Sequence record: OM386655.1
Origin: Escherichia phage vB_EcoM_ESCO10
Strand: one strand, 5' to 3'
Length of the DNA: 64,000 bases
The translations under genes and the position numbers were made by a program. Positions 474 to 28,966 of the stretch are shown piece by piece. Position 1 is the first letter of the stretch; every line of letters begins with the position of its first letter. The notes beneath the pieces are model-generated. The model was not told the DNA's origin. It worked only from the letters and a program-made list of their open reading frames with translations, and searched no databases.

Positions 474-474
474 A

Positions 475-684: not shown

Positions 685-686
685 GA

Positions 687-1532: not shown

Positions 1533-1595
1533 AATAATTTCCTCAGTAAGTAAATAAGAACCTAGAACCATTATACCATCCTTGGTATAAAGCGT

Positions 1596-2120
1596 TTATG
1601 CGAGAACCGTCTTTAAACGCTCTTCAAATTTCTGAAGCAGAGCTTGGCGTTCAGCTCGTTGTGATTTGTACTGCTCGATACGTCCTGAAGTGAGGGCGTA
1701 CTGTTCGTTTACTGATTCCCGCATAAATTCAGGAATTTCTTTACAAGCTTTGATTTCGTCAAACTTGTCAATAACAGCTTGTTGTTCAGCAATCATATTA
1801 TCGAAATAAGCGATATCTGATTTAACGTTTGCCAGGTCAGATTCGGTAGGCATTAAACGTTTGTTACGTTCAGCTTGATAAGCTTGGTTGGTTTCACGAC
1901 TCCAGTGAAGAGTACGTTTTTTGTTAGTATTTTTATAGAGCTCTACAATACCTACTGAATCGATGATAGCAATCCAGTTCCAACGGCTTTTGTAAATCTC
2001 TCCTCCAGATACGGTAATCTCATTTCCACAAGCAACATCGTTAAAGAACTTGCTTTGTTTTTCAGATTTGAAATTACCGTTATTAAAATTAATCAGTGAA
2101 AAAATATCTTTAGCGTTCAT
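1596..2120 (-). CDS. hypothetical protein
   Basis: 174-aa ORF; GGAGG SD; early-promoter cassette directly upstream. Confidence 0.6.
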   Translation of the reverse strand: MNAKDIFSLINFNNGNFKSEKQSKFFNDVACGNEITVSGGEIYKSRWNWIAIIDSVGIVELYKNTNKKRTLHWSRETNQAYQAERNKRLMPTESDLANVKSDIAYFDNMIAEQQAVIDKFDEIKACKEIPEFMRESVNEQYALTSGRIEQYKSQRAERQALLQKFEERLKTVLA

Positions 2121-2146
2121 GTTAACCTCCAGTAGTTGATAGGTCT

Positions 2147-2175
2147 ATAGTATCATTCCTACTGGAGATGTAAAC
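2147..2175 (-). promoter_or_regulatory. early promoter cassette (GTTTAC -35, 17 nt, TACTAT -10) inside stem-loop
   Basis: Minus-strand GTTTAC at 2170..2175, TACTAT at 2147..2152; inverted repeat CCAGTAG/CTACTGG (2129..2135, 2159..2165). Confidence 0.6.
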
Positions 2176-2177
2176 AA

Positions 2178-2519
2178 CTAATAGAAACTTTTTTCGCCGG
2201 TTTGTCCGCTAAACCAGGCTGATTGGGTATTAGGTTTCCGTTGTTGCTCAATACGGGTACGATATTCTTTTCTGATGGCACAGAGGTCATCCTGGAAGTC
2301 GCCTGCCAACTTTACCTGCTTACGGTCTAGATTTATTAAGGCCTGAGTCTTAGCGGCCAAGGCCAGTCTCTTGTAGTCTCCTTCTTCACAATCAGTTTTA
2401 TAAACTCTATTAGCGTATCCGTCGATAAATTCTTTATCATAGTCTTTGATAGACTGTTCCATGGCATTAGAGTACTTCAACTCTGCTTTTATAAGGTCAT
2501 AACTAAATTGTTCAAACAT
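2178..2519 (-). CDS. hypothetical protein
   Basis: 113-aa ORF; AAGGTA SD; co-directional packing. Confidence 0.5.
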   Translation of the reverse strand: MFEQFSYDLIKAELKYSNAMEQSIKDYDKEFIDGYANRVYKTDCEEGDYKRLALAAKTQALINLDRKQVKLAGDFQDDLCAIRKEYRTRIEQQRKPNTQSAWFSGQTGEKSFY

Positions 2520-2528
2520 AATTTACCT

Positions 2529-3509
2529 TTATTTTAAAAGTGTAACTTCAGCAATTTCAGCCCAATCATTAGAATCAGTAGCAATGAAATCAGCCAAATA
2601 GAGGGCGGTACGCAATGAAACATTACGCAAACGTGATACATTAGCCTTCATCCATGAGAGTGCCTGGTAAGTCTGAGCGTCAGTCAGACCACGCTTCTGC
2701 ATCATATCTGTAGACAGGATAACGTCTTCAACACGAACCATAATCTCTTCGTTAGAGTGAACACCCAGGTCTAAGTAAACTGAACGTGATACTAAAGCTT
2801 GGAGATGCGGAGAAAGTTTAGTTCCACGTTCCAATTCACGGTCAATATCAACGTTAGTGATGAATACGACGGTGCCTTCATACTCGAATTCTTTATCGAT
2901 ATTTTTATCATCAAGATAAGAACTTGAAGTGCTCCAGCATACCTTACGTTTCTCACCGGTGTCCAATGCCGCTTTCAGAAGGTTCAGGATATCCATGTCA
3001 GAGAATACATCAACATCATCGATAAGAAGAACACTATTAGGGCCGCGGTTATTCCAAAGCTGCTCGTAAAGACCGATTCCACTAATCTTTCCGTTGATTG
3101 ATTTATATTCGATAGTTTCATTTTCGTGGGCATTCTGTAATGCTTTATCCAATGAATATGTTTTACCAATACCTGCGGCACCAGAGATGATAAGGGAACG
3201 AATTTTACCATCGATGATTCCATTAGTCATCATGTTCATTACTTTAAAACGTTTGTTGATGCGGTGTTTCATTTCGTCCTGGGATTCAGTTAAGACGGCA
3301 GGGGTTTCAACACCTTCAGTTTCGATATCAGATTTGAACACCCATACACCACGCTCTACACCATCAATCTGAACAAAGACCTTACCATCGCCGAGGTGGG
3401 CTTCTGATTCATGAATTTTATTAGGGAACCAGGTTTTACCTGAACTCATGAACGTACCAGAGATTTCGTTACCGCGGTAGATGCCTTTGTTGATTTTGAT
3501 AGTTAACAT
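2529..3509 (-). CDS. P-loop NTPase (AAA-like) with ~100-aa N-terminal extension
   Basis: Walker A GAAGIGKT and Walker B LLIDDVD; start moved from GTG 3524 to ATG 3509 behind AAGGA SD; early-promoter cassette upstream. Confidence 0.6.
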   Translation of the reverse strand: MLTIKINKGIYRGNEISGTFMSSGKTWFPNKIHESEAHLGDGKVFVQIDGVERGVWVFKSDIETEGVETPAVLTESQDEMKHRINKRFKVMNMMTNGIIDGKIRSLIISGAAGIGKTYSLDKALQNAHENETIEYKSINGKISGIGLYEQLWNNRGPNSVLLIDDVDVFSDMDILNLLKAALDTGEKRKVCWSTSSSYLDDKNIDKEFEYEGTVVFITNVDIDRELERGTKLSPHLQALVSRSVYLDLGVHSNEEIMVRVEDVILSTDMMQKRGLTDAQTYQALSWMKANVSRLRNVSLRTALYLADFIATDSNDWAEIAEVTLLK

Positions 3510-3544
3510 TTTATTATCCTTCACTCATTTGTTTTGATAGGTCT

Positions 3545-3573
3545 ATCTTAACACGATTAATCAGGTTGTAAAC
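3545..3573 (-). promoter_or_regulatory. early promoter (GTTTAC -35, TAAGAT -10)
   Basis: GTTTAC at 3568..3573, 17-nt spacer, TAAGAT at 3545..3550; conserved leader TAGACCTATCAAAAC. Confidence 0.5.
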
Positions 3574-3592
3574 AATTTTTTGCACTAAACCC

Positions 3593-3618
3593 AAAAAAAG
3601 GAACCCGAAGGTTCCTTG
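3593..3618 (-). terminator. rho-independent terminator
   Basis: Minus-strand hairpin AGGAACC-TTCG-GGTTCCT followed by a U7 run, directly after the stop of gene 3621..3905. Confidence 0.7.
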
Positions 3619-3620
3619 TA

Positions 3621-3905
3621 TTATTTCTTACAACCTACATATTTAGGCATATGGCAGAAAACAGAATCGGTAACTACTCGACCTTTGGCCCATGCTTCCT
3701 GTGCTTTACCGTGAGTAGTATTCACATAGCTGGATTTAATATTCTCGATACCTTGAGAATGTGATGCGTGTGCAGAACCATTAGAAGGACCTGCTGACTG
3801 ACTTGAACCTTGACCGCCCGGGCCTGATGTGCCTTCAGTAGCCAGTACACCAAAAGACATAACAGCGGCCAACAGGCCTATAGCCACTTTTAATTTTAAT
3901 TTCAT
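3621..3905 (-). CDS. small secreted protein (signal peptide, Gly/Ser-rich)
   Basis: N-terminal MKLKLKVAIGLLAAVMSFGVLA; AAAGGTG SD; hairpin+T-run terminator just downstream. Confidence 0.6.
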   Translation of the reverse strand: MKLKLKVAIGLLAAVMSFGVLATEGTSGPGGQGSSQSAGPSNGSAHASHSQGIENIKSSYVNTTHGKAQEAWAKGRVVTDSVFCHMPKYVGCKK

Positions 3906-3924
3906 ATTTTCACCTTTTATTAAC

Positions 3925-4137
3925 TCAACATTGAGTAAGATTATTGTATACTAAAGTTTTAAAGCATTTAAATAGCGCTCCAATAATTATGGAAGCGGAT
4001 ATCATTGATTGCCCAGTTAACAAACCTGCGAGTTTGCTTGGGAGTTGGTTTACATATGTACTTATTGTTGATTCGTCTGCCGGTTTCCCGACAGACTGCT
4101 TCGAGATACCAGCGCCGACCTTTATTGGGTCTTCCAT
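3925..4137 (-). CDS. hypothetical small protein
   Basis: 70-aa ORF in a gap between better-supported genes; weak SD; competing overlapping ORFs. Confidence 0.3.
   Translation of the reverse strand: MEDPIKVGAGISKQSVGKPADESTISTYVNQLPSKLAGLLTGQSMISASIIIGALFKCFKTLVYNNLTQC
3943..3966 (-). promoter_or_regulatory. putative MotA-dependent middle promoter
   Basis: Minus-strand TGCTTTA box (3960..3966), 11-nt spacer, TACAAT -10 (3943..3948), upstream of gene 3621..3905. Confidence 0.4.
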
Positions 4138-4163
4138 ATGATAAGAAGACCTTCATTTCTTCA

Positions 4164-5174
4164 TTAACGATAATAGGAATTGTGGTTGTCAAGATATACC
4201 TCTTCAACAAACTTGTCCCAGAACTTCATGTCTACCTTATCGGGCATACCGTTCTTAGCCGCCCAGACGGCATTGGTTTCGACTTCATCGACGATTGCTT
4301 CAAGTTCAGCTTGTACATCTTTAAAAGCGTGTAGGCCTTGTTTGATTTCAAGGATAAATGGAGCCGTACGTAAAGGATATTGGAGATCGCCGGTTTGGTA
4401 AATTTCTTTCAACTGGTATCCAGCACGATAAGCATGGCTCAGAGCTTTCCAGTCAATACCTTCATTGGCTTCGGCCTTACGAGCACGCTCACCGTATTCG
4501 GCATCGAGCTTATTCAGAGATTGCTTGAGCTCGATTAATGACAAAGTGGTCTGGTATTTGCGTCCTAAGACAGTATAGAACGTTTGTGGGCCGGTTTTCT
4601 CATGGTTATGGAATACCCATTCACAGAATTCGTTTTCAGGGAGTCGATGCTTAATATCTTCAACTTTAGTACGACGTTGTTTAGTCGAACCATCTTCTTG
4701 GTAGTCAACCCACTGTTCAGGAATCTGGTTAACAATTGACAGTACACCACGTAATGCAGCTAAACGAGAACCCTTAACACCATACTTAGAAGCTTGCTTA
4801 CGGACGTACCCTAAATATGCTTTCATGTTAGTTGTATAGAACCGAGAACGGTTGTCTTGGATAAATTTCCATACATCTGGTAAATCGGATTTGACTACCA
4901 GGTTAGCCGGAGTATGAATCATATCCAGAGCTACAGTTTCACCTTCAGCGGCCAGTTTAAAGAAATATTTAAGGCTGTAAAGCTCGTGGTCAACATCGTC
5001 TTTAGTGTTTTTGGATGCCGTGTTATTCGTGTTCAAGTTGGTATGGTTCATAGCCGTACCCAACAGAATATCACGCGGGTGTGGAACAAAGATTTCCTTA
5101 AAATCGATATCAGATTCCGGAGTACTTGTTCCATAAAGATGGCTACCGAAGTAGCCCTTCATAACTGTTCTCAT
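4164..5174 (-). CDS. putative nucleotidyltransferase (Pol-beta-type NTase signature)
   Basis: GSHLYGTSTPESDIDF fits G[SG]-x(9-13)-DxD; ATGA overlap with upstream stop; GAGG SD. Confidence 0.45.
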   Translation of the reverse strand: MRTVMKGYFGSHLYGTSTPESDIDFKEIFVPHPRDILLGTAMNHTNLNTNNTASKNTKDDVDHELYSLKYFFKLAAEGETVALDMIHTPANLVVKSDLPDVWKFIQDNRSRFYTTNMKAYLGYVRKQASKYGVKGSRLAALRGVLSIVNQIPEQWVDYQEDGSTKQRRTKVEDIKHRLPENEFCEWVFHNHEKTGPQTFYTVLGRKYQTTLSLIELKQSLNKLDAEYGERARKAEANEGIDWKALSHAYRAGYQLKEIYQTGDLQYPLRTAPFILEIKQGLHAFKDVQAELEAIVDEVETNAVWAAKNGMPDKVDMKFWDKFVEEVYLDNHNSYYR

Positions 5175-5623
5175 TTCTTCGCCTCAAAATGGATTACCGG
5201 ACAGACCTTAGATTTACGAGCTTTGATATATTGAATGAAAACGTTTTCTTTAGTTTCTCTGCCTTCACGCTCAGCTTTAATTCGTTCCCATTCCTTTTCT
5301 TCTTTACGTGTATCGTACCAGGACCATAAATTCATCAGACCATACACTAAACCAAATGCTACCGCCAGAATAATAGCCATTGTAGCCAGTCCTAAAATAA
5401 ACCCTAACCCTAAACCAACAGGAATACTTAATACAAAGAACTGGTCTAATACACCAGCACCTGCAACAGTTAAGGCGAAGATTGTACTACCTGCAATCAC
5501 AGAACAAATAAAGCAGGCCCATACAATTTTCCAGAAGTAAGCACATAAAGAGTGTGGTCGAGAATAATGGCTATAAAAACGGTCGTGTAATTTAGTGTGC
5601 CAGGCGTTTTCATTAATAATCAT
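5171..5623 (-). CDS. membrane protein (2-3 TM helices), charged C-terminal tail
   Basis: Long hydrophobic core then RKEEKEWERIKAEREGRETKE; AAGGAA SD. Confidence 0.55.
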   Translation of the reverse strand: MIINENAWHTKLHDRFYSHYSRPHSLCAYFWKIVWACFICSVIAGSTIFALTVAGAGVLDQFFVLSIPVGLGLGFILGLATMAIILAVAFGLVYGLMNLWSWYDTRKEEKEWERIKAEREGRETKENVFIQYIKARKSKVCPVIHFEAKK

Positions 5624-5632
5624 TGTAATTCC

Positions 5633-6187
5633 TTAAGAGTTCATAGTTGGGATAATAGTGTTCAGGTATTTTACCAGAACTTTTAATTCGTCTTTAGTGA
5701 ATACTACTTCAGCTTCACCGTCGTGGGTCTGGATGATAGATAACATATCGCGACCTTGATGTTGGTAGACACTGAATTCAGTATTATAATCACCTTCTTC
5801 ATCACCTTCAAAGGTTTCGCTTGAATGCATAATAGCATCACAACCAGGGATTTTCCACTCGAGCTCAGGTACACACTCTTCTTGGAACAGTTTAAAAATT
5901 TTCTCTAAAAATTCTGAACGGTTTTTAATGGATAAACAAGCCCATTCGGTTTCCAGATTAAAGCCATTTTCACCTCGATACAACCAAGCCATATCTTCAT
6001 CGTTAATTTTAAAGACCCGATTATGAGTTCGAATATACTGCTCTGCATCAATAACAGACAAGTCGTACAGGTTCTGAATATCCTGAATGGTCAAAACGAC
6101 TGTATCATCTTCTTGTTTAAGCACGATTGCATTATCAATTACATCGGCAGTCAGGTCACCAAACAACCCAGATTTTTCAATAATCAT
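5633..6187 (-). CDS. hypothetical acidic protein
   Basis: 184-aa ORF; GAGGAAA SD. Confidence 0.55.
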   Translation of the reverse strand: MIIEKSGLFGDLTADVIDNAIVLKQEDDTVVLTIQDIQNLYDLSVIDAEQYIRTHNRVFKINDEDMAWLYRGENGFNLETEWACLSIKNRSEFLEKIFKLFQEECVPELEWKIPGCDAIMHSSETFEGDEEGDYNTEFSVYQHQGRDMLSIIQTHDGEAEVVFTKDELKVLVKYLNTIIPTMNS

Positions 6188-6198
6188 TTTCTATTTCC

Positions 6199-6381
6199 TC
6201 ATTTCACATTTTGTTTAATAAAATTTAGTAATTCTTTAAGGGCCTTATCTTCTTCTTTAGAAAGCCTAGTACAATCATCAACCGAGTATTGGTGACAAAA
6301 TGCGGTTTCGAATCTAGCAACTGTACCTGCATAGGCCTCGATAAGCTCTTCAAGCTTTAAGTGCTTTTCTTTAGTTTTCAT
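6199..6381 (-). CDS. hypothetical protein
   Basis: 60-aa ORF; GGTGA SD. Confidence 0.4.
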   Translation of the reverse strand: MKTKEKHLKLEELIEAYAGTVARFETAFCHQYSVDDCTRLSKEEDKALKELLNFIKQNVK

Positions 6382-6384
6382 AAA

Positions 6385-6594
6385 TCACCGGTTATGTTTT
6401 AAAATACTATAAAGCTCTTCAACTTGGCTCGCATCCAGATAAATGACCTCGTCATCTTGTTCTAGGACAATCCCACCCTTAACAATATTCCACTCTACTA
6501 CTTCAACAGTCATATCATCACCAGAGCCTGCTAATGTTTCAGGTTCTAAAACAATAATACCATCTTCAGAATTACCACTCGGGTCATATAACAT
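6385..6594 (-). CDS. hypothetical small acidic protein
   Basis: Track ORF 6385..6669; start placed at ATG 6594 behind GAGGAAA SD; 5' boundary uncertain. Confidence 0.4.
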   Translation of the reverse strand: MLYDPSGNSEDGIIVLEPETLAGSGDDMTVEVVEWNIVKGGIVLEQDDEVIYLDASQVEELYSILKHNR

Positions 6595-6685
6595 TACAGT
6601 TTCCTCGCTAACCATGAAAAGAATAAACCAATTAAAACAGGCCCTACAGCCATTGTTAACCAAGCCCAAGGTTCAAGATAGTAAA

Positions 6686-6943
6686 TCATCTCATGCTCCT
6701 ATGCCAACAGTTACGTGGCTCGCGTTTAAAAATTTCATCATGCATCGCTTGACAACCTACACAGTATATCACACCCTTGATAGCTTGACGTCGTGCTTCA
6801 GGAATCTCTTCATCACAATCAAAACAATATTCAGCGGATTCACGTTCAACCGCTACTTGCTTACGAGCGTGTACTATAGCAGCCTGGACGACGGCTTCCA
6901 TTTCGAGCTGTTCGGCTCCATCCTTCGCAAATCCAACAGCCAT
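6686..6943 (-). CDS. TraR/DksA-type C4 zinc-finger protein
   Basis: CFDC...CVGC (CxxC-x17-CxxC) in an 85-aa protein. Confidence 0.55.
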   Translation of the reverse strand: MAVGFAKDGAEQLEMEAVVQAAIVHARKQVAVERESAEYCFDCDEEIPEARRQAIKGVIYCVGCQAMHDEIFKREPRNCWHRSMR

Positions 6944-7125
6944 TATATTTTTATCTCGTTTAGATAAGCGACCAATTTTTCTTTAGAATTCTTTAAGTCA
7001 CGGTTACATGCCTCTATCCCGGAGTATGAATATCCTTCGCAATGTTCAACAGCCAGTTCATAAGAGGTAATTTCAATATCACGAGCGAGTTTAATAATTT
7101 TTTCAATCTGTTCAGTGGTTAACAT
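6943..7125 (-). CDS. hypothetical protein
   Basis: 60-aa ORF abutting upstream stop. Confidence 0.45.
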   Translation of the reverse strand: MLTTEQIEKIIKLARDIEITSYELAVEHCEGYSYSGIEACNRDLKNSKEKLVAYLNEIKI

Positions 7126-7129
7126 AATA

Positions 7130-7366
7130 TCACCAGTATTTGTTGATGGTAGAAATTAATTCTTGGGCTTGAGTAGTCTTCAGCTTACACCCACATCCAT
7201 TTAATGTATCTTTAAGGAGCCATGGCTCCTTGAGCTCGTCCTTTTCTAGACGAATTCTGTATCCTCGGTAATCAGCAAAGATACTTCGGTCATCAAATAT
7301 CTTAATCTCAAGGAGACGGTTATTGATTTCGTATTCCAACGAAACCATAGTACTTGTAAGTTTCAT
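7130..7366 (-). CDS. hypothetical protein
   Basis: 78-aa ORF; GAGGAGAA SD; early-promoter cassette upstream. Confidence 0.55.
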   Translation of the reverse strand: MKLTSTMVSLEYEINNRLLEIKIFDDRSIFADYRGYRIRLEKDELKEPWLLKDTLNGCGCKLKTTQAQELISTINKYW

Positions 7367-7393
7367 AATATTCTCCTCATTAGTTGATAGGTC

Positions 7394-7422
7394 TATAGTA
7401 TCATGTTCCTAGAGGATGTAAA
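7394..7422 (-). promoter_or_regulatory. early promoter cassette with SD-pairing stem
   Basis: GTTTAC 7417..7422, TACTAT 7394..7399; TCCTC in the spacer is complementary to the downstream GAGGA SD. Confidence 0.6.
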
Positions 7423-7431
7423 CACCTAAAC

Positions 7432-7458
7432 GAAAAAAGGTCCCACCGAAGTGAGACC
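7432..7458 (-). terminator. rho-independent terminator
   Basis: Minus-strand hairpin GGTCTCAC-TTCG-GTGGGACC followed by a U6 run after gene 7464..7850. Confidence 0.65.
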
Positions 7459-7463
7459 TTTGA

Positions 7464-7850
7464 TTATTCTAACGTTAACAAATACTTAGTTTGGTAAAAG
7501 ACACCAGTGATGTCGTCCAAAGTCGATTGGATGGCCTTAGGAAGATTTTTGTAGATTTTATCAGATGCTTTAATAAGTTCATCAAGAAAATCTATAGGGT
7601 CTTTAGGCAGTTCTGAAGCAGACGGCAGTGATGCTTTATATTCTTTGCCACTAAATCCTAGATACTGCTCACTGAACTGGTCTAGTGGTCCTTGAACTTC
7701 CGTATAATAGAAGTCGTATGCTTTGTGTCTTGCATAGCTTTTGGTTTCCAAATGGGCTGACTTAAAATAGGCTAAAGAAACCAATAGCCAGCCAATATAA
7801 GAATCTACTTCAGTCCCTCGACTAAGTACGAAATCATTGAATTTCATCAT
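7464..7850 (-). CDS. hypothetical protein (position of T4 rI.-1)
   Basis: 128-aa ORF downstream of rI-like gene; hairpin terminator follows. Confidence 0.5.
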   Translation of the reverse strand: MMKFNDFVLSRGTEVDSYIGWLLVSLAYFKSAHLETKSYARHKAYDFYYTEVQGPLDQFSEQYLGFSGKEYKASLPSASELPKDPIDFLDELIKASDKIYKNLPKAIQSTLDDITGVFYQTKYLLTLE

Positions 7851-8127
7851 CTACCTTCATTAGTTTAGCGTATCGTTCTCCGACCGCCCGACCTTCAATC
7901 GAGCAAGACTCTATTGTATTGCAATTTGAAAGTTTCCAAGAAGCAGTTACATAAGCCCAGTAGTCTTCAGAGGCCTTTACGCTAGGTTTACTCATTTGCG
8001 CATAAACTGGCATCGCACTACTAGCAAAGGCGTCCATCAATTTAGGATCGGATTTGTTTGCTAGTGAAACTGTTGGGCTTAAACATCCAATCATAAGGAT
8101 ACAAGCCACTGTACGGAAAATACCCAT
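7834..8127 (-). CDS. rI: lysis-inhibition regulator RI-like protein
   Basis: 97 aa as in T4 RI; N-terminal hydrophobic signal-anchor; adjacent to tk as in T4. Confidence 0.55.
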   Translation of the reverse strand: MGIFRTVACILMIGCLSPTVSLANKSDPKLMDAFASSAMPVYAQMSKPSVKASEDYWAYVTASWKLSNCNTIESCSIEGRAVGERYAKLMKVDDEIQ

Positions 8128-8217
8128 ACAAAAGTCCTTTGTTATTTTATACGAATTTGCCTTTCGGCCTTAACCGATAGCGTTTTCCAAAAGCAAAAGC
8201 TCTATGGTTAGTAATTG

Positions 8218-8225
8218 TATTTATA
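8218..8225 (-). promoter_or_regulatory. possible late promoter (TATAAATA) upstream of rI-like gene
   Basis: Exact minus-strand TATAAATA about 90 nt upstream of the start; overlaps the stop of the upstream ORF. Confidence 0.3.
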
Positions 8226-8499
8226 GCTTTTTAAGCTTACTACAATAAGCATAAAATACATCGTTAAAATTTTCAGAAACCCATCCACGCTGTATAGGCG
8301 AAGTAATTGAAAGCAGATAATGTGCTTTAATTAACTCCATCCCATTTTTATTAGGGCATTCTTTATTATTAGCATTATACGTCGCTGCTACAACCTCTAT
8401 CTCTCTTTTGTAAGCCGTATCATCCATGATAGGCAAAAGAACAATATAAGAAATAGCCACAGCTACCGCTAGAATTAAAATCTTTGAATTTAGGTCCAT
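8221..8499 (-). CDS. small membrane protein
   Basis: 92-aa ORF with N-terminal TM helix, between tk and rI-like gene. Confidence 0.5.
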   Translation of the reverse strand: MDLNSKILILAVAVAISYIVLLPIMDDTAYKREIEVVAATYNANNKECPNKNGMELIKAHYLLSITSPIQRGWVSENFNDVFYAYCSKLKKL

Positions 8500-8506
8500 A
8501 GTACCC

Positions 8507-9079
8507 TCAACTCGTTATTTCTATCCAATGCTTCCTGCACAATGACACGTAAGAATCGTTGCCACCTATAGAAACTTGGTCGCCGTCCTTAATTGCGATA
8601 CCATTTTGGATACGAGCTGTCATAGTAGCCTTACGTCCACAATGGCACACACCTTTGTACTCAACGAGTTTATCTGCTGTAGCTAATAATTCAGCAGAGC
8701 CAGGAAACAGTTTACCCTGAAAATCAGTTCTTAGACCGTAACACATGACCGGTATATTATAATTATCTACTATCTTTGCTAATTGTTTTATTTGCAAAGG
8801 TTCTAAGAACTGTGCTTCATCCACAAACACACAGTGGATATCTTTTTGAGATTCAGCCCAACGATAGAACTCGTATAGGTCCATATCTGGAGTCACTGCA
8901 TTAGCCTCTTGGCTAATCCCTATACGAGACGAAATTCTATGGCTTGATTCTCTATTATCTATCGCAGGCTTTAAAAGGAGTACACCCATACCACGTTCTT
9001 TGTAGTTATGGGCCGCCGTTAGCAATGAAGAGGTCTTCCCAGAATTCATCGCAGCATAATGGAAATAAAGTTGGGCCAT
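8507..9079 (-). CDS. tk: thymidine kinase
   Basis: P-loop AAMNSGKT; strong similarity to E. coli Tdk / T4 Tk (MAQLYF..., CYGLRTDF, CRKH) from memory. Confidence 0.95.
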   Translation of the reverse strand: MAQLYFHYAAMNSGKTSSLLTAAHNYKERGMGVLLLKPAIDNRESSHRISSRIGISQEANAVTPDMDLYEFYRWAESQKDIHCVFVDEAQFLEPLQIKQLAKIVDNYNIPVMCYGLRTDFQGKLFPGSAELLATADKLVEYKGVCHCGRKATMTARIQNGIAIKDGDQVSIGGNDSYVSLCRKHWIEITS

Positions 9080-9088
9080 ATTACCTTC

Positions 9089-9277
9089 TTAAAGACTATT
9101 TACATAAGCAATTAATTCGTTTTCTTTCTCATCAAACTGTTCGGCGATTTTTTCGTAATCTTCAGCGCTCACAGGACCCCATTCATCGTATGATTGCATT
9201 CCAGAATTCTCTTCTAGAAGCTCATGGATAAGCTCAAACAATTTATCTTTTTGTTCTTTACTTAGACTCATAACCAT
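9089..9277 (-). CDS. hypothetical small acidic protein
   Basis: Track ORF 9089..9292 starts at TTG; start moved to ATG 9277 behind AAGG SD. Confidence 0.45.
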   Translation of the reverse strand: MVMSLSKEQKDKLFELIHELLEENSGMQSYDEWGPVSAEDYEKIAEQFDEKENELIAYVNSL

Positions 9278-9480
9278 TGCACCTTTAAACAATATTCATC
9301 TACGTGTTGGACACGTTTGTTTTTGTCAATAAAAGTATATTCAACATACTCGCCAATATACCGCTTATCCACATTGTGAGGACTTTTTATAGGACACTTG
9401 GTTACTCGGGTTTCAGTCCAGTGTCGAATAATTTCTGCTTTGTTTTTAGGGTCAAACGGATGTGGGTAATGGGCTTTCAT
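9268..9480 (-). CDS. hypothetical protein
   Basis: 70-aa ORF; overlaps 3' end of macro-domain gene by 29 nt. Confidence 0.4.
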   Translation of the reverse strand: MKAHYPHPFDPKNKAEIIRHWTETRVTKCPIKSPHNVDKRYIGEYVEYTFIDKNKRVQHVDEYCLKVQWL

Positions 9481-9922
9481 AATCTACCACCACTAAATTA
9501 ATATCAGGAGTAAACAAATTAATCAATTGATAAACATTGTCCCAATCACCACCAGCAATACCACAGCCAATGCGAGGAATATAAATTCTCGGTTTAAACA
9601 AAAGACCCTTTGCAGTACGGTTTAATTCTATCATACAGTTTACTAAAGCACCATAATCAAGATTAGGACCTGGTTCATATTGCGTATAAAGATTATAGCA
9701 AATTTGGCCATTATTGCCTGTGGCTTGAGTAAATGTCCCAAGTTTTGCCGCATCACCTAAATAAGTGGCTTCTCTATCAATGGCAAGAATAGGTGAATAA
9801 GCCTTAGCCAATTGACCTGCTACGCCCGAACCCATAGTATGAAAACAGTTACACCCATGAGCAACGTTATTACCTTGAAGAAACAGGGCGACGATATCGC
9901 CCTTAATATAATCAATAATCAT
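9452..9922 (-). CDS. macro-domain protein (putative ADP-ribose binding/processing)
   Basis: N-x(5)-MGSGVAGQLAKA and IGCGIAGGDW resemble the two Gly-rich macro-domain motifs; ATGA overlap with upstream gene. Confidence 0.55.
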   Translation of the reverse strand: MIIDYIKGDIVALFLQGNNVAHGCNCFHTMGSGVAGQLAKAYSPILAIDREATYLGDAAKLGTFTQATGNNGQICYNLYTQYEPGPNLDYGALVNCMIELNRTAKGLLFKPRIYIPRIGCGIAGGDWDNVYQLINLFTPDINLVVVDYESPLPTSV

Positions 9923-10275
9923 TTAGAGTTTAGTCCTCGGTTGTAAGAGTCAACGAGTCTGTCTACCATAGACGCGCACATTTCTTTATACTTTTTATCA
10001 GATGGAACACATTCAGTAACATTTAGACGTTGCTCGTATCTTTTAGAAAGGGTTTTCTCTTTCATTCGACGATGCTCGACGTCATTCTGCCCGTCTTTAA
10101 AAGCAGCTGTTATTTTTGAACTGAATTCAATAACACATTCAGTATTACTTGGATGACAATAATCTTTTGCTGTACGGGTAGCATACTCGACAATTGAATT
10201 ATTGGTATCATCAACCTGTGACGCTAATACTCCCGGAGCAATCAACATAAGCGCTATAGTCATCTGTTTAATCAT
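9919..10275 (-). CDS. secreted Cys-containing protein (signal peptide)
   Basis: N-terminal MIKQMTIALMLIAPGVLASQV; abuts upstream stop. Confidence 0.5.
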   Translation of the reverse strand: MIKQMTIALMLIAPGVLASQVDDTNNSIVEYATRTAKDYCHPSNTECVIEFSSKITAAFKDGQNDVEHRRMKEKTLSKRYEQRLNVTECVPSDKKYKEMCASMVDRLVDSYNRGLNSK

Positions 10276-10815
10276 TTAATATACCGCCTCAAACATCTTT
10301 TTAGATTTTAGGTAATTGGCCTTTTCTAGAACTTCCGAAGCATATTTACTACCTGCTTTGGCATTCCAGCCTGCATTATAAGAAGCAATCGCTTTTCTCA
10401 GGTCACCTTTGTGAACATTAATCCAATACGACAGTTCAATGTAGGCCCAAGAGGCACTGTTCTGTCGGTTTTGGACCATACGAATTATTTCTTTATCTGA
10501 CATCTTCCAACCTACCTGTTTAACACGACTTCTTAACGTAGGCAAGTAATTTTGGAACATGCCATAAGCATGGTGCTTATCTTTATTTAAACCTTGATTA
10601 ATCCCAGCAGATGATTCCTGCCATAATAATCCAGCCATTATATATCCTAATCCTTTTTGATTAGGGGTTTCTTTGAACTTTCCCGACTTTTGGTATTGTT
10701 CACCGAAAGCATACGCGTAATGTAAATTATCGAGTTGTTCATTACTGAAAGTAGGCTCTACGCTATAGGCAGACATACTAACTGTCAATAGTAAAGTGGC
10801 TAATACTTTTTTCAT
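10276..10815 (-). CDS. lytic transglycosylase-like protein with signal peptide
   Basis: Signal peptide MKKVLATLLLTVSMSAYS; catalytic-region-like LWQESSAG...AYGMFQ and AYNAG motif typical of SLT domains. Confidence 0.6.
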   Translation of the reverse strand: MKKVLATLLLTVSMSAYSVEPTFSNEQLDNLHYAYAFGEQYQKSGKFKETPNQKGLGYIMAGLLWQESSAGINQGLNKDKHHAYGMFQNYLPTLRSRVKQVGWKMSDKEIIRMVQNRQNSASWAYIELSYWINVHKGDLRKAIASYNAGWNAKAGSKYASEVLEKANYLKSKKMFEAVY

Positions 10816-10827
10816 GAGACCTCATTA

Positions 10828-11286
10828 TTAAAGATAGATTACTTTAGTGCTCGTTTTACCTTCTAAACGTTTAGAGTTAACAAATGCCATACGACATTTT
10901 AATGAATATCCTTTATCAGGATGTTTACGATCTACAGTCATACCTAACCATAAGGTTTTATCGGTAATCTCGAGACGCAGTGGACGATACACTTTACCTG
11001 GGACAATTTCAGATTCTACATCAGGCATAGGTTCCTGGATTAAAAATTCATGGATTTCTTTAACATGGTTATGGAGTTGCTTGAATAAAGCAAAAACGTA
11101 TTTTTCGTCAATTTCACGTTGGATAGCACGGTCCAATAGGTGATTAGAGTACTTAATAAAGAAAGCTGGGACTCCACTCTTAATGGCGGCTTTTTTGATG
11201 GATGTATTCAGTTCACGAAATTCGGTTTCGAACTGACGACGTAATTTGTTGCGGCGGATGAATACTTCTGAATTAATTTCTGACAT
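10828..11286 (-). CDS. regB: RegB site-specific endoribonuclease
   Basis: 152 aa; strong similarity to T4 RegB (EVFIRRNKLRR...HLLDRAIQREIDE) from memory; AGGAGAAA SD; early-promoter cassette. Confidence 0.85.
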   Translation of the reverse strand: MSEINSEVFIRRNKLRRQFETEFRELNTSIKKAAIKSGVPAFFIKYSNHLLDRAIQREIDEKYVFALFKQLHNHVKEIHEFLIQEPMPDVESEIVPGKVYRPLRLEITDKTLWLGMTVDRKHPDKGYSLKCRMAFVNSKRLEGKTSTKVIYL

Positions 11287-11313
11287 TTTGTTTCTCCTGT
11301 AGTTGATAGGTTT

Positions 11314-11342
11314 ATAGTATCATGCCTACAGGAGATGTAAAC
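11314..11342 (-). promoter_or_regulatory. early promoter cassette upstream of regB
   Basis: GTTTAC 11337..11342, TACTAT 11314..11319; inverted repeat CCTGTAG/CTACAGG (11296..11302, 11326..11332) overlapping the SD. Confidence 0.6.
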
Positions 11343-11346
11343 TGCT

Positions 11347-11556
11347 TTATTCTTGGAATGGTGTGAGTTTTCCAGCTATCGAACAAATTTCTACCATTGC
11401 AGGATAAAACTCTTTCACTTGTTCAAGGCGCTGGACAGCGTACCGCATTTCGCCTTCTTCAAGACAAGCAACCTGGTCATCGAGCAAATATTTGTGGTAA
11501 CCGGTACAGGCTTCGCTAATGATACGTTGGAATTCTTGCAAACTTTCAATTTTCAC
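11347..11556 (-). CDS. hypothetical protein
   Basis: Track ORF 11347..11598 overlaps upstream gene; proposed GTG start at 11556 behind GAGGAAAAA SD; start uncertain. Confidence 0.4.
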   Translation of the reverse strand: MKIESLQEFQRIISEACTGYHKYLLDDQVACLEEGEMRYAVQRLEQVKEFYPAMVEICSIAGKLTPFQE

Positions 11557-11819
11557 TAGTATTTTTCCTCGGGTCGAAATACTGCACGACATGCCCACAT
11601 GCTGGCTTCTTTTAGATGTTGCTTAGCATACTTAAGAGCCTGCACCGCATCCATATCTTCTTTGGTTTGTTGCTCTGTTTCATTTTCTTTCAAGATATAT
11701 GCTTCTTCAATCAGAGCATCAAACATCAATCCAAGACGGACTTCTGCATCTTTAATAGCGTTCACTTTACCGATTTTATCGTCGGTATGCGGCTTGTAAC
11801 CTTTGATGTCTTCAATCAT
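11556..11819 (-). CDS. hypothetical protein
   Basis: 87-aa ORF; ATGA overlap with upstream gene. Confidence 0.5.
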   Translation of the reverse strand: MIEDIKGYKPHTDDKIGKVNAIKDAEVRLGLMFDALIEEAYILKENETEQQTKEDMDAVQALKYAKQHLKEASMWACRAVFRPEEKY

Positions 11820-12034
11820 TTCACTTCCTCACCAGTTGCGATATCATATTCTACCAAACGAAGCCCATCCGTCCAACCTTGTACGGAGATATAAGTGGTC
11901 GGATAAACCATTTCTTTACCATTCCATTGACCACCGTCCCAGACTTCCAGAAAGTCTTGTTCACCGGGTCCATTAAACCATTCAACGAATCTTTTCAAGG
12001 CTACATCAGAGCCTTCAATCGTCAGTTTAGACAT
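11816..12034 (-). CDS. hypothetical protein
   Basis: Track ORF 11816..12073; start placed at ATG 12034 overlapping upstream stop; alternatives 12049, 12073. Confidence 0.4.
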   Translation of the reverse strand: MSKLTIEGSDVALKRFVEWFNGPGEQDFLEVWDGGQWNGKEMVYPTTYISVQGWTDGLRLVEYDIATGEEVK

Positions 12035-12323
12035 ATTTTTTCCAGTCATTAACCATACGAATCTCTTGGTCATATGTCAAGAGGCTACGAGTTATAATAC
12101 CCTTACATGGTCCTGAGATGAACTCTAGAGTGAAGTAAGGAACTTGTTTCATTAATCGGATACTTGGGGCATGGCATCTAAAACGAGAGCCTGTAAATGG
12201 CCCTGACATGAACACGTATTCTAATGGATAGAAATATGCGTATTCAAAATTTATAGTAAGGTCTTCTCTTCGAACCTTACGTGAGAAATAGCAGAACTCA
12301 AAAAGCTCTTCATCAGTCATCAT
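12027..12323 (-). CDS. hypothetical protein
   Basis: 98-aa ORF; ATGA overlap with upstream gene. Confidence 0.5.
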   Translation of the reverse strand: MMTDEELFEFCYFSRKVRREDLTINFEYAYFYPLEYVFMSGPFTGSRFRCHAPSIRLMKQVPYFTLEFISGPCKGIITRSLLTYDQEIRMVNDWKKYV

Positions 12324-12859
12324 TGCATTCCAATCACAAAAAATTGAGGTCGAGTATTACCACCAATGCAAAATTTACTATCGCAGCAGTACTGTACAGT
12401 GTCAATATGGGCACTATAAATCTTATCCATATCAGGAGATTTAATAGGCTCATCAATTATATACAAAATTCGCGAAAGCTTTAAACCTCTGAACTTGCTT
12501 CCTTTATTACCGATAAAGCTACGTAATGAATCATGGAAAAGCCGGTAACGAATATCTTCCGCGCTAAAACGAATAAAATCATTTTTGATAGAATCGGATG
12601 AAATTTTAGCGTAAGCTGAAGTATTAGAAAGAACAATAACTGTTCCGCCATCATATAACCAATTGGCAGCAAAGTTAGTCACAGCAATTGATTTACCGGA
12701 TTGACGTCCACCATCTATACGAAGTGTGCAATACTGTTTAAGTACGTCTTCAAATGGCGGGATATAATCGTTTTTACAAAGTTCTTCTATTCGAGCATCA
12801 GAATGGTGGGTAAAAGCATTCATCAGGGATAGATAAGGTCCGGTTAAAAAAGTTCTCAT
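12320..12859 (-). CDS. P-loop protein (Walker A/B)
   Basis: GGRQSGKS and ILYIIDE motifs; start placed at ATG 12859 behind AAGAGAAA SD (track start 12910). Confidence 0.5.
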   Translation of the reverse strand: MRTFLTGPYLSLMNAFTHHSDARIEELCKNDYIPPFEDVLKQYCTLRIDGGRQSGKSIAVTNFAANWLYDGGTVIVLSNTSAYAKISSDSIKNDFIRFSAEDIRYRLFHDSLRSFIGNKGSKFRGLKLSRILYIIDEPIKSPDMDKIYSAHIDTVQYCCDSKFCIGGNTRPQFFVIGMQ

Positions 12860-13021
12860 ATTGTTTCTCTTAAGGTTTTGGGGCCATTCCTTGGCACATA
12901 ATTCATCCATGTATCCGTATGTAACCCTTTACCGCACTTGGGCTCGACCTTATTACAGGTAGGGAAAGGTCCATCACTCAGAGGACGCGACGTTCATGAG
13001 GAGAGGGCCGGCTTGCCTTTA

Positions 13022-13321
13022 TTAGAAAGAACCAGAGCCTTTAATTGTATTCTGACGTCCTTTATTTTCTACTTCAGAGTGGTCGATTTCGTAAGCTTGT
13101 GCTACACCAAAGGATTTTTTAATTTTAGCCAATGAGCCTTTAGAAATAACAATGTTAAAGGTGTTGCCTTTAGAAAAATCAACCAACTCTACAGTAACAC
13201 CGTTATTGGTTAAACTATTAACAATAGCATCAACATATTGCTGGTCTAAAGTTCCCTGAACGCCAATTTGAAAAGCTTTAGGTGCTTTAGCTTCAGTGAT
13301 AAATTCTTGATATGTTTTCAT
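13022..13321 (-). CDS. internal-protein-like head cargo protein (capsid-targeting N-terminus)
   Basis: Begins MKTYQEFITEAK, matching the T4 IPI/II/III capsid targeting sequence MKTYQEFIAE; AAGGAATAAT SD. Confidence 0.7.
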   Translation of the reverse strand: MKTYQEFITEAKAPKAFQIGVQGTLDQQYVDAIVNSLTNNGVTVELVDFSKGNTFNIVISKGSLAKIKKSFGVAQAYEIDHSEVENKGRQNTIKGSGSF

Positions 13322-13329
13322 ATTATTCC

Positions 13330-13689
13330 TTAAAGATGGTCAAGGGCTGGGTTATGAGGTTTTTCTGCTTTAGTAGTGTTTTTATGCCAATCTGATTTAG
13401 AAACACGGATGGCATCAGCGCCATAAGAACTCTTAAGGAGACCTTTTTTATTGTACACACTTATTGAAGTAAGAGAATCACCATTCCATGTAGCATGAAT
13501 GAAGTTAGATTTAGATTTAAGTTCTTTAGCCAAGCTCTGGTTAGTGGCCATGGAAGCAAAGTCTATACCTGTAACTTTAAAAACTTCAGATGGGTTCAGC
13601 CCTTCTTTAGCCTTAGCCAATTGTTCAGGAGACATACCTTCGTTAATGCGCTGAGTAGATTCAGTAATAAATTGTTTGTAAGTTTTCAT
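13330..13689 (-). CDS. internal-protein-like head cargo protein
   Basis: Begins MKTYKQFITEST; AAGGAATAAT SD; early-like promoter upstream. Confidence 0.7.
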   Translation of the reverse strand: MKTYKQFITESTQRINEGMSPEQLAKAKEGLNPSEVFKVTGIDFASMATNQSLAKELKSKSNFIHATWNGDSLTSISVYNKKGLLKSSYGADAIRVSKSDWHKNTTKAEKPHNPALDHL

Positions 13690-13713
13690 ATTATTCCTTA
13701 AGTTGATAGAAGT

Positions 13714-13743
13714 ATTCTATCACGGATTTAATTAAGCGTAAAT
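13714..13743 (-). promoter_or_regulatory. early-like promoter upstream of IP-like gene
   Basis: ATTTAC (-35 variant), 18-nt spacer, TAGAAT -10. Confidence 0.35.
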
Positions 13744-14148
13744 AGCCTTACCATAATGTTTGTACCAGGTAGGGCGTTGTGCAATTTTTTCGTCTAAACG
13801 GGCTTGTGATATAGCGATAGAAGCTTCATGGGGAATATAATCACCACGGAATTCCTGAGGAATATCACTAATATCCTGGACTGTAGTATCCTTGATATTA
13901 AACCCGCGTTTTAGACATTCGGCTATAAGCTCAATTTGACGTTTACGTAAGAACTCAAGCTTATCGTAAAAGAATGTAACATGACCCGTGCCAAGGATAA
14001 AACCTGAGCTGATTTTAAAATCACGAACACGTTTACCATTAGCAACATGCTTACGAACTGCACTGAAAACACGTGGTAATTCACGATATTCAGCCATTAA
14101 GTGTTGGTCAGCCAATTCAGATACTAAAGTAAGGTTGATACGAGTCAT
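13732..14148 (-). CDS. denV: endonuclease V (pyrimidine-dimer DNA glycosylase)
   Basis: 138 aa, near-identical to T4 DenV as recalled ([28 protein letters not shown]...); start corrected from track 14325 to ATG 14148. Confidence 0.95.
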
Positions 14149-14176
14149 TTTTAATCTCCTGTGTCGGTATGAGAGT

Positions 14177-14205
14177 ATCATATCACAACTACAGGAGATG
14201 TAAAC
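14177..14205 (-). promoter_or_regulatory. early promoter cassette upstream of denV
   Basis: GTTTAC 14200..14205, 17 nt, TATGAT 14177..14182; CCTGT/ACAGG stem pairs into the SD. Confidence 0.6.
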
Positions 14206-14209
14206 AACT

Positions 14210-14704
14210 TTATAGATTTTTATACGCGTCCCAAGTACCAGTTCTAAACGTTGAAATGACTCGCTTAGCTCGGTTGGGGGTCTGTTTGTACCAACGAGAC
14301 TGTGCCAGGTTAACTGCGGCCTCATCCCAACGTTTTTGTTGGAGCATACGAAGAGAGTTAGTAAATCCTGCTACACCAGCTTCACCCATTTGGAAGACCA
14401 TATTAATTAGTGCGCAACGACGAACTTCGTCAAGCACATCATAAACAGGTTTCAATTTAGGATTACGCAGAATAGCTCTACGAGCATTTTCCACTGAACG
14501 ATTAAAGAGTTGTTCTGCTTCAGTCATTGTAATACGACCATTACAAACTCGACCCATAAGTTTATCAAGTTCAGCACGAGCAACATCTTTAGAAGGATTC
14601 TTGGTTATCAATTGACCGATGCCAATAGTCCAATAACCTTCGGTGTCTTTATAAAGATTTAAATCAAGACCTTCGTCTTGACGTAACATATCAAAAATAT
14701 CCAT
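14210..14704 (-). CDS. e: lysozyme (endolysin)
   Basis: 164 aa, near-identical to T4 lysozyme ([17 protein letters not shown], ...[11 protein letters not shown]). Confidence 0.97.
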
Positions 14705-14734
14705 AATACCTCCTGAGTATAGGAGGTATTTATT
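14705..14734 (-). promoter_or_regulatory. SD-sequestering hairpin and late-promoter-like box in front of lysozyme gene e
   Basis: mRNA ACCUCCU-AUACUC-AGGAGGU (14708..14727) holds the SD in the 3' arm 4 nt before AUG; AAUAAAUA box (14727..14734) abuts the 5' arm. Confidence 0.6.
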
Positions 14735-14738
14735 ATTC

Positions 14739-15188
14739 TTAGAACATCGAGCTCAGAACCTTATACATCGACTGGCCCATGACATATTCCCATTGTGGAC
14801 GTTTAATCAAGGCGAAAGCATCGAACTCAGGAATACTACGACCGTCAGGGAACGTATGATAAGCAGTACATTTGCAATTCTTGAACTGCTCGTGTTCCAC
14901 AGGCACAGTATATAAGAACAGGTGTAGATTCTTATTGCTAGAATATTTGAACTCACCTAGGTCTTTCAGGAACGCAGGGTCATATGCAGTGAATCCAATC
15001 TCTTCTTCGGTTTCACGCATAGCGGCTTGAATTGGTTCTTCACCCAGTTCAACATGACCTTTAGGAATGTCCCATTTATGACGCATATTCTCTGGATTAC
15101 GAGAACCTGTTACACGGCCCATGACTAGTTCTTTATCAACGGTCATGAACAAAATACCTGCTGATAGTTCTTTAACTTTCTTACTCAT
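14739..15188 (-). CDS. nudE: Nudix hydrolase
   Basis: Nudix box [23 protein letters not shown]; 149 aa (T4 NudE about 151); start moved to ATG 15188; directly downstream of e as in T4. Confidence 0.8.
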
Positions 15189-15417
15189 CGTCTCGTTTCC
15201 ATGATTGGTTAAAAATATCTTGCATAATAATTTCAAGGCGGGTTTCTGTTGATGGACTTTCACTATTAGATACTTGAACCATATAGTCGGAAATAGGACG
15301 GAACATATCCAAGTCACTTTCTAAATCTTCTTTTATTTTCTCTTCCGATGCTCCAGTATCATAGGAATACAGATAAGAATCGCATGATTCAGATTTAACA
15401 TAAATCGCAATACTCAT
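15181..15417 (-). CDS. hypothetical acidic protein
   Basis: Start by ATGA overlap with upstream stop (alternative ATG 15426). Confidence 0.45.
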   Translation of the reverse strand: MSIAIYVKSESCDSYLYSYDTGASEEKIKEDLESDLDMFRPISDYMVQVSNSESPSTETRLEIIMQDIFNQSWKRDDE

Positions 15418-16007
15418 TTTCGACATTCCTCAATAAAATCATTTAAATTCTGTTTAGTTTTACCTTCGTCATAAAGACGTTGTTGACGACGTAATCGCCA
15501 TGGCATTTCAATAGCCAAACACCAGATACTTAAAGCAGCACCAGCAGTAAAAAGGTTCATTAACCCAGCGCCAATAATAGTTCGTTCTAACGCATCATTC
15601 CAGTTGACATCAATTAAAAACGAGCTCAGCACTAGCATCGGAAATAAAGTAATAAGATATGCCACTACATATCGTCCAAACGTAAGCCATTCAGTATCAA
15701 TGAGCTTGGCCTTCCCATCTTGGAGGCAAATATACTTATCGTCAGTGCGAGTAATTTTCTTTGCGGGTTGCCATCCATTAACGATATATCCCATTTTATA
15801 TTCCTCAATTAAAAGCTCTTTCATATGACGGTTACAGTGCGACCAATCTACTGTACTGGCTGAAAGACCTTCATCACCATCATCAAGATTTCGCCAGGAC
15901 TTTTTAATAACCATATTTTCACCGCTTGGTACAATGATTCCGGCGTTTTCAGAACGCCGGACGAAGTTCACATCAAGGCCCATACATCCGGGTTCATAAA
16001 GAGCCAT
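15414..16007 (-). CDS. membrane protein (C-terminal TM helices)
   Basis: 197-aa ORF; GGAGGG SD; TAATG start/stop overlap with upstream gene. Confidence 0.55.
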   Translation of the reverse strand: MALYEPGCMGLDVNFVRRSENAGIIVPSGENMVIKKSWRNLDDGDEGLSASTVDWSHCNRHMKELLIEEYKMGYIVNGWQPAKKITRTDDKYICLQDGKAKLIDTEWLTFGRYVVAYLITLFPMLVLSSFLIDVNWNDALERTIIGAGLMNLFTAGAALSIWCLAIEMPWRLRRQQRLYDEGKTKQNLNDFIEECRK

Positions 16008-16693
16008 TACCAGCCCTCCATAGGGAATTCAAGATAAACCTGAGCATTAACACGAATTTCATTGGTAATATTTTTAACACGGTCAGTGTTACGAGATACA
16101 CGACCAAACCAACGCCATCCATTACTTACCGTACGAGAACCAGTATGCCAGGTTTGCCAATCAAACTGCAAGAGTGTACGGTCTGGAGCTTCCCACTGCT
16201 CTAATTCACCTGATTCAATTTTAGCCAAGACTTCTTTGTGCCATTGACGATAAATCAATTCACCTTCCGGGATTTCACTAAAGGTAGCTTCACCTGTAGC
16301 AAAATGGGTAGGACACACATCAGCGTTAACAAGACCAAGAATGTGTTCAGATAAATAGAGAGGATTGTCATAATCAGGTTGTCCTGCAGTAATAAAATGT
16401 TGGCCTGTTGGAATAGGTGGACGAGGAACATCGTCGTGGTGATAACCTGGGATAGCCGGATACCAGCCAGGCATCAACATATGCACACGCGAATCAAACA
16501 CTACTTGGTCATTGTTCCAATCATCAGGCAAGTTCATAATAAAAGAGCGCGTAATAGGGCCGCCATTATTATAAGCAAATTCTAAACTACAGTTGAAGAA
16601 CATCGGTTCGTTCTTGATTTTATCATTAGAAATGCCACCAGCAAAACCACCTACTGCACGAGCTTGACTATTAAAAGTTTTAGGACCGTTCAT
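16007..16693 (-). CDS. hypothetical protein
   Basis: Track ORF to 16777; start placed at ATG 16693 behind GAGGAAAA SD. Confidence 0.5.
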   Translation of the reverse strand: MNGPKTFNSQARAVGGFAGGISNDKIKNEPMFFNCSLEFAYNNGGPITRSFIMNLPDDWNNDQVVFDSRVHMLMPGWYPAIPGYHHDDVPRPPIPTGQHFITAGQPDYDNPLYLSEHILGLVNADVCPTHFATGEATFSEIPEGELIYRQWHKEVLAKIESGELEQWEAPDRTLLQFDWQTWHTGSRTVSNGWRWFGRVSRNTDRVKNITNEIRVNAQVYLEFPMEGW

Positions 16694-16919: not shown

Positions 16920-16956
16920 TTTATTCTCCATTTCACTCTGTTGTTTTGATAGGTCT

Positions 16957-16985
16957 ATAGTATCACACCTATAGACCTTGTACAC
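16957..16985 (-). promoter_or_regulatory. early promoter cassette (GTGTAC -35 variant, TACTAT -10)
   Basis: Inverted repeat GGTCTATAG/CTATAGACC brackets the -10; conserved leader. Confidence 0.5.
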
Positions 16986-16997
16986 TGTTTTGTGCAT

Positions 16998-28932: not shown

Positions 28933-28943
28933 AGTTGCCTCCT

Positions 28944-28951
28944 TATAAATA
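28944..28951 (+). promoter_or_regulatory. late promoter (TATAAATA) for gene 53
   Basis: Exact TATAAATA 27 nt upstream of the gene 53 ATG. Confidence 0.65.
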
Positions 28952-28958
28952 TTAATAT

Positions 28959-28966
28959 TATTTATA
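28959..28966 (-). promoter_or_regulatory. late promoter (TATAAATA) for gene 4, divergent from the gene 53 promoter
   Basis: Exact minus-strand TATAAATA 27 nt upstream of the gene 4 ATG. Confidence 0.6.

Follow-up and report, generated by a model that had tools for sequence, protein, structure and literature searches.

The translational lock on gene e, the lysozyme gene of phage T4, is said to have been established by McPheeters et al. in 1986 (NAR 14:5813). The early RNA of T4 extends into e and forms an inhibitory structure there, and lysozyme synthesis is reduced 100-fold (Uzan & Miller 2010, PMC3014915). Two late promoters lie inside the hairpin; transcripts from either of them are without the 5' portion and are well translated, and their starts have been mapped in T4 (PMC3014915). 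For close relatives among the T4-type phages, similar leaders were predicted, each having a late promoter where the 5' strand is encoded (PMC3014915), and the e genes of Aeromonas phages were reported to have no such hairpin (Uzan & Miller 2010).

The window analysed here is a stretch of 64,000 nucleotides of Escherichia phage vB_EcoM_ESCO10 (OM386655.1), whose genus is Dhakavirus. The 1.2-kb stretch around its e leader is 95% identical to phage VR5 and ~89% identical to JS98 and relatives. With high probability, this Dhakavirus leader is orthologous to that of T4 gene e and acts as a promoter-dependent translational lock. This reading is based on sequence anatomy, folding energetics, positional orthology with T4, and conservation with compensatory change. 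The initial annotation had described the hairpin and likened it to the T4 lock; its observation and its interpretation are both correct, and the element is real but already known. The likeness is seen in the same gene order, box position, anti-SD and SD arms, and in near-equal folding costs.

Anatomy and folding of the gene e leader

The features of the locus are as follows.

14210..14704, minus strand: gene e, T4-type soluble lysozyme, 164 aa (open reading frame; PHROG endolysin match, 2.8e-27)
14739..15191, minus strand: nudE (nudix hydrolase), the upstream gene (PHROG nudix match, 5.4e-71)
14741-14739, minus strand: nudE stop codon TAA, 34 nt ahead of the e AUG
14734-14727, minus strand: predicted late-promoter box AATAAATA, which matches the gp55-type consensus TATAAATA except for A at -13; T4 has its first e late promoter in this position
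14730-14721, minus strand: 5' arm AAUACCUCCU (anti-SD) of the minimum-free-energy structure
14720-14715, minus strand: loop AUACUC of the same structure
14714-14705, minus strand: 3' arm AGGAGGUAUU of the same structure, including the SD
14714-14709, minus strand: SD AGGAGG, within the 3' arm
14704-14702, minus strand: e start codon AUG, directly abutting the 3' arm

The e protein shares 99% identity with that of VR5 and 79% with e of the T4 group. On the minus strand the leader reads TAA-GAAT-AATAAATA-CCTCCT-ATACTC-AGGAGG-TATT-ATG. The gene order, nudE (e.1) then e, and the strand logic are the same in T4, the leader of which is TATAAATACCTTCTATAAATACTTAGGAGGTATTATG; the box of the window aligns with the first late promoter of T4. 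When the two leaders are aligned (window TATAAATACCTTCT...AGGAGGTATTATG, T4 AATAAATACCTCCT...AGGAGGTATTATG), the 3' arm, SD, spacer and AUG are identical (AGGAGGTATTATG), and the 5' arms are one base apart, CCTCCT in the window and CCTTCT in T4, so that a G-U pair of T4 is a C-G pair in the window and the helix is perfect. The base at -13 of the box is A in the window and T in T4, and the loop is 6 nt long in the window and 10 nt in T4. The T4 loop holds the second late promoter, TATAAATA. A second late promoter is absent from the loop of the window, where the corresponding region TATACTCA has 3 mismatches to TATAAATA, so that the window has a single late box; a promoter in the loop is a trait of T4 and its closest relatives and is not part of what defines the mechanism.

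RNAfold gives a helix of 10 bp, AAUACCUCCU/AGGAGGUAUU, in which positions 14730-14721 pair with 14714-14705 and the SD is buried. The hairpin ACCUCCU-AUACUC-AGGAGGU of the initial annotation folds where it had been placed on the minus strand; the helix is longer than the 7 bp listed there, because AAU/AUU also pair. The SD had been located in the 3' arm, 4 nt before the AUG, and the 4-nt spacer between GGAGG and the AUG is indeed UAUU. A late-type box had likewise been assigned to the sequence just 5' of the hairpin. The box is present at 14734-14727, and its last 4 nt are shared with the 10-bp helix.

The isolated hairpin has a folding energy of -12.5 kcal/mol. The folding z-score of a 71-nt leader segment is -2.97, with 3 of 200 shuffles folding equally well. 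The pattern CCTCC-N3-14-GGAGG occurs once in the 64 kb, compared with 0.13 occurrences expected from shuffles. Among 76 rough gene models ranked by the cost of opening the SD region, calculated on RNA from -100 to +60, e is 5th with 13.3 kcal/mol (median 4.0); the four genes ranking above it are accounted for by other known arrangements. The e hairpin is more than chance. A search of positions 14000-15600 against Rfam returned two chance-level matches only (E = 0.3-0.4, far under the gathering score), and a family for the e leader element was not found in Rfam.

In read-through RNA, taken from -100 or -200 to +60, opening the six SD bases costs 12.8 kcal/mol and the mean probability that the SD is unpaired is 0.013. 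In RNA starting 5-8 nt after the box, the cost is 3.1-3.7 kcal/mol and the mean probability is about 0.2. The T4-type late promoter box comprises 8 bp at -13 to -6 (PMC1524935), which puts the predicted +1 either at the end of the 5' arm (14721, U) or on the base that opens the loop (14720, A). With such a start 9 of the arm's 10 nt would be removed, the predicted late RNA would retain at most 1 nt of it, and the SD would cost about 3.3-3.7 kcal/mol to open. The proposal that a late transcript without the 5' arm would expose the SD agrees with this model, in which the cost falls from 12.8 to 3.1-3.7 kcal/mol. A residual opening cost of 3-4 kcal/mol is left in the predicted late RNA because the SD pairs weakly with the U-rich coding start. 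Applied to T4, this calculation yields 13.8 kcal/mol when the RNA reads through and 3.4 kcal/mol when it starts at the first late promoter; by this model, the leader of the window is therefore energetically equivalent to the experimentally studied T4 leader.

In the mechanism proposed for the window, early or middle transcripts that cross nudE into e would carry both arms, which would fold into the 10-bp hairpin with the SD buried and the AUG abutted; ribosomes could then not load, and no early lysozyme would be made. After replication begins, gp55-RNA polymerase would recognise AATAAATA, which overlaps the 5' arm, and would start about 6 nt downstream of the box, at the end of the 5' arm. The late RNA would be without the anti-SD, the SD would be accessible, and lysozyme would be translated. 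We infer the firing of the A(-13) box in vivo and its start position, the existence of early read-through RNA in this phage, and the size of the translational block, which according to the literature is about 100-fold in T4.

Predicted late promoter box and candidate read-through transcripts into e

The first base of the box had been noted as off consensus, and it is A in place of T. This is a natural variant: in a list of 50 T4 late promoter sites, 32 match the consensus perfectly, and A(-13) is the commonest variant, with 9 sites (PMC2988020). Conservation of T(-13) is poor among other T4-like phages, where A or T is common (PMC1524935). A retrieval on the coding sequence alone gave 13 distinct e leaders, 6 of which have a box beginning with A, 4 with G and 3 with T; the ATAAATA part is invariant. 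The A(-13) variant does not argue against the function of the predicted promoter. In the literature, no usable modern transcription-start-site data covering T4 e were found.

The window contains 16 TATAAATA boxes and 7 AATAAATA boxes. Most of the 16 are located 20-45 nt upstream of genes, for example genes 4 and 53; judged by the sequence of these sites, the phage employs T4-type late boxes. When the printed flanks of the 7 AATAAATA sites were inspected, only the e box and a site at 63493 were found just upstream of an SD and an ATG. The latter box (63493-63500, plus strand) stands just ahead of its SD and ATG (AATAAATATTAAATTAATAACGGGGGATTTATG), and its gene runs past the end of the window. 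The site at 63493 suggests that A(-13) late promoters may be in use elsewhere in the genome.

Genes 4 (28483-28932, minus strand) and 53 (28979-29581, plus strand) are divergent, with back-to-back SDs and a palindrome GCCTCC...GGAGGC at 28934-28980. They have two divergent TATAAATA boxes, at 28944-28951 on the plus strand and 28959-28966 on the minus strand, from which the predicted late starts fall inside the palindrome. This palindrome follows automatically from the divergence of the two SDs; at the distant lysozyme loci L036-L040 an anti-SD hairpin is mimicked in the same way.

Late starts upstream of the hairpin were one of two refutation tests set beforehand. On the minus strand no other late box with at most one mismatch is present in the 1.3 kb upstream of the e box (14735-16068), and the nearest perfect minus-strand late box upstream of e is at 23162. 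Late RNA from so far upstream would remain locked, and RNA from the proximal box would be unaffected.

Early-promoter-like sites upstream of e are listed below; all are sequence matches.

16950..16995, minus strand: the nearest upstream site, GTGTACA ... GATACTAT, a candidate source of read-through
about 18482, minus strand: GTTTACA-type -35 and GATACTAT-type -10
about 21677, minus strand: a site of the same type
about 22134, minus strand: a site of the same type
about 22474, minus strand: a site of the same type

The nudE gene and further upstream genes are co-directional with e. The terminator scan found no minus-strand terminator-like site between 14705 and 18043. Co-directional genes, early-promoter-like sites and the lack of an intervening terminator would fit read-through into e. 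A pair of tRNA genes, tRNA-Arg(tct) and tRNA-Met(cat), is located 8-9 kb upstream of e (23909-24064, minus strand).

Cassettes resembling the PeSLs (promoter-early stem-loops) of T4-type phages, each with a GTTTACA ... GATACTAT early promoter and stem-loops, are found on the minus strand at about 25215, 22474, 22134, 21677, 18482, 16990, 14179, 11341 and 2170. At least three have an anti-SD within the promoter spacer or immediately ahead of it, namely those preceding 13732-14148 (denV), 10828-11286 and 1596-2120, and these genes therefore rank high for SD opening cost, with 12-16 kcal/mol. By the folding model, read-through RNA alone would have its SD sequestered in these three, a logic shared with the e leader but built on early promoters.

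The internal-protein gene content differs among the window, VR5 and JS98. Small genes starting MKTY(Q/K/N)(E/Q)F..., which we take to be the N-terminal capsid-targeting motif of T4 internal proteins, are present at 13022-13321 and 13330-13689 (minus strand), and further such starts follow the late boxes at 23155 and 25512; two of these genes are preceded by a perfect TATAAATA. Compared with VR5 (locus L002, 2571-3658), the window is missing ip3 and ip7, a segment of about 1.09 kb located between e and denV, and the junction is at 14149-14209 on the minus strand. The breakpoint is in a GTTTAC -35 motif common to two early-promoter/stem-loop cassettes, a position that would fit PeSL-mediated modular shuffling (PMC2839356, PMC4122927).

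Conservation of the leader in related phages

Conservation of the hairpin in relatives had been set beforehand as the second refutation test, and the hairpin is conserved. Leaders were gathered from IMG/VR and from named GenBank phages. The e leader of VR5 is identical to that of the window. In the IMG/VR Dhakavirus contigs L005-L007 and L012, the segment from box to AUG differs from the window only at the first box base; in JS98 it differs at that base and at three further positions. JS98 and several other Dhakavirus contigs carry the canonical TATAAATA. Beyond this genus, a NATAAATA box that abuts or overlaps an anti-SD arm and is followed by an SD arm was found in at least nine genera in all, namely Tequatro-, Mosig-, Dhaka-, Kanagawa-, Marfa-, Kagamiyama-, Karam- and Jiaodavirus and an unclassified phage with a GGGGG SD. 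The folding energies of the conserved hairpins range from -11 to -16.6 kcal/mol. A perfect second box is found only in Tequatrovirus leaders.

In a retrieval blind to the hairpin, loci were picked by the coding start alone (M-D/N-I-F-D/E-M-L). The box was present in 18 of 19 distinct 45-nt leaders, and the SD was paired in all 13 distinct box-to-AUG segments. Identity to the window is 88-100% for the box and 5-35%, no better than random, for the 20 nt that precede it.

Two types of helix are distinguished. The Dhaka/Tequatro/Mosig type is extended outward into the box (AUA/UAU). In the Karam/Kanagawa/Jiaoda type the extension is inward (UAUC/GAUA), and the innermost pair is A-U in place of C-G. 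Plain MAFFT left the 5' arms of the two types out of register, and on this basis the alignment was registered by hand. Six core pairs were formed in 98.9% of the cells (17 distinct leaders), compared with 33-54% when the partners were slid by 1-3 columns, in an alignment that leans towards structure because it was registered by hand with N pads, among sequences that are phylogenetically related and have a 3' arm also constrained as SD. The compensatory changes comprise one double change from U-A to C-G that involves the SD (SD GGGGG, anti-SD CCCC) and four G-U changes.

The leader of the Muldoonvirus Serratia phage WSPA (locus L088, about 660-710) has a perfect TATAAATA followed by a 10-bp complement, AGUCAUGUUA/UAACAUGACU, which would cover the AUG and leave the SD in the loop. 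This pairing was read by eye; RNAfold did not show the helix, the folded segment having stopped at the AUG without the 3' arm. Taken from the pairing seen by eye only, the WSPA leader would form the same lock by an independent route.

The e leaders of Tulanevirus and Angelvirus (Aeromonas phages) and the lysozyme leader of Phapecoctavirus (Stephanstirmvirinae) have no such hairpin. The distant lysozyme loci L036-L040 were rejected as cases of an anti-SD hairpin; the gene upstream is divergent, and the apparent anti-SD is that gene's own SD.

Alternative readings and comparison with known systems

It is very improbable that the hairpin acts mainly as an intrinsic terminator or 3'-end stabiliser for the nudE early unit, with sequestration of the SD incidental. 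The orthologous hairpin in the record of the Mosigvirus ATK48 (GenBank KT184310) is annotated as an ARNold terminator on the sense strand, and the stem is G+C-rich and located 11 nt after the nudE stop codon. However, the stem is followed on the sense strand by AUGGAUAUUUUUGAU, with no U-tract, and the terminator scan makes no minus-strand call at the site (tail AUGGAUAU). The early RNA of T4 is, moreover, documented to extend into e (PMC3014915). A sense terminator would also leave unexplained the constant anti-SD in the 5' arm and the late box that always overlaps or abuts it. On the plus strand the scan does make a call, at 14705-14730, with 11 pairs and the tail TATTATTCTT. The palindrome could then act as an intrinsic terminator that stops antisense transcripts arriving from lower coordinates, with the box complement serving as the U-rich tail, and both strands are transcribed at several sites in T4 (PMC2988020). 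We give this very little credence. A T-rich tail is automatic from a box next to the arm, positions 1-14704 contain no TATAAATA or AATAAATA box on the plus strand, and there are no plausible plus-strand genes nearby; terminator-like sites in the region number 4, compared with 4.2 expected in shuffles.

A palindrome that arose by chance, or as a relic without a regulatory role, for instance from the back-to-back SDs of divergent genes, is hardly credible. Divergent genes do make such palindromes automatically, as at genes 4/53 (28934-28980) and at loci L036-L040, but nudE is co-directional with e, and the anti-SD is therefore not the SD of another gene. With 0.13 such palindromes expected per window, the one at e is also conserved, with compensatory change, in genera whose flanking sequences cannot be aligned. 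Compatible with the lock, and placed on top of it, would be a late promoter of e kept below consensus on purpose, the strength and number of boxes working as a dial that sets, lineage by lineage, when lysozyme is made or how much of it. We consider this improbable; it is proposed because -13 is T in only 3 of the 13 leaders, only Tequatrovirus adds a second perfect box, and TATAAATA is the commoner box in the window. A weaker alternative to such a dial is that the palindrome and the complement of the box could additionally terminate antisense transcription.

The promoter-dependent translational lock is the reading preferred here. The classic T4 device against premature lysozyme would be intact in this Dhakavirus, with the choice of promoter deciding whether the mRNA can be translated. 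The result matters little beyond correct annotation and opens no new question. In annotations, the hairpin should be entered as an element of translational control together with its late promoter; the ortholog is called a terminator in at least one GenBank record. The small additions are the single A(-13) box, the loss of the second T4 promoter outside Tequatrovirus, the genus-specific upkeep of the helix and the free variation at -13. A helix kept by different base pairs across genera, together with a freely variable -13 base, provides a natural data set for gp55 recognition and for structure-based control of translation.

Published accounts already exist of the mechanism (McPheeters 1986) and of how it is conserved among T4-type phages (Uzan & Miller 2010). 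The leaders of T4 soc, gene 49 and I-TevI follow the same logic, in that long transcripts of the early or middle period have their initiation region sequestered, and it is free in those from a late promoter located within the 5' arm or beside it (PMC3014915). Their genes and sequences differ, and they are non-homologous to the e leader of the window. The PeSL cassettes of T4-type phages combine, like the e element, a promoter with a stem-loop (Arbiol 2010, PMC2839356; Comeau 2014, PMC4122927). PeSLs, however, have sigma-70-type early promoters, are located in hyperplastic regions and are subject to modular shuffling, whereas the e element has a gp55-type late box and is fixed and syntenic.
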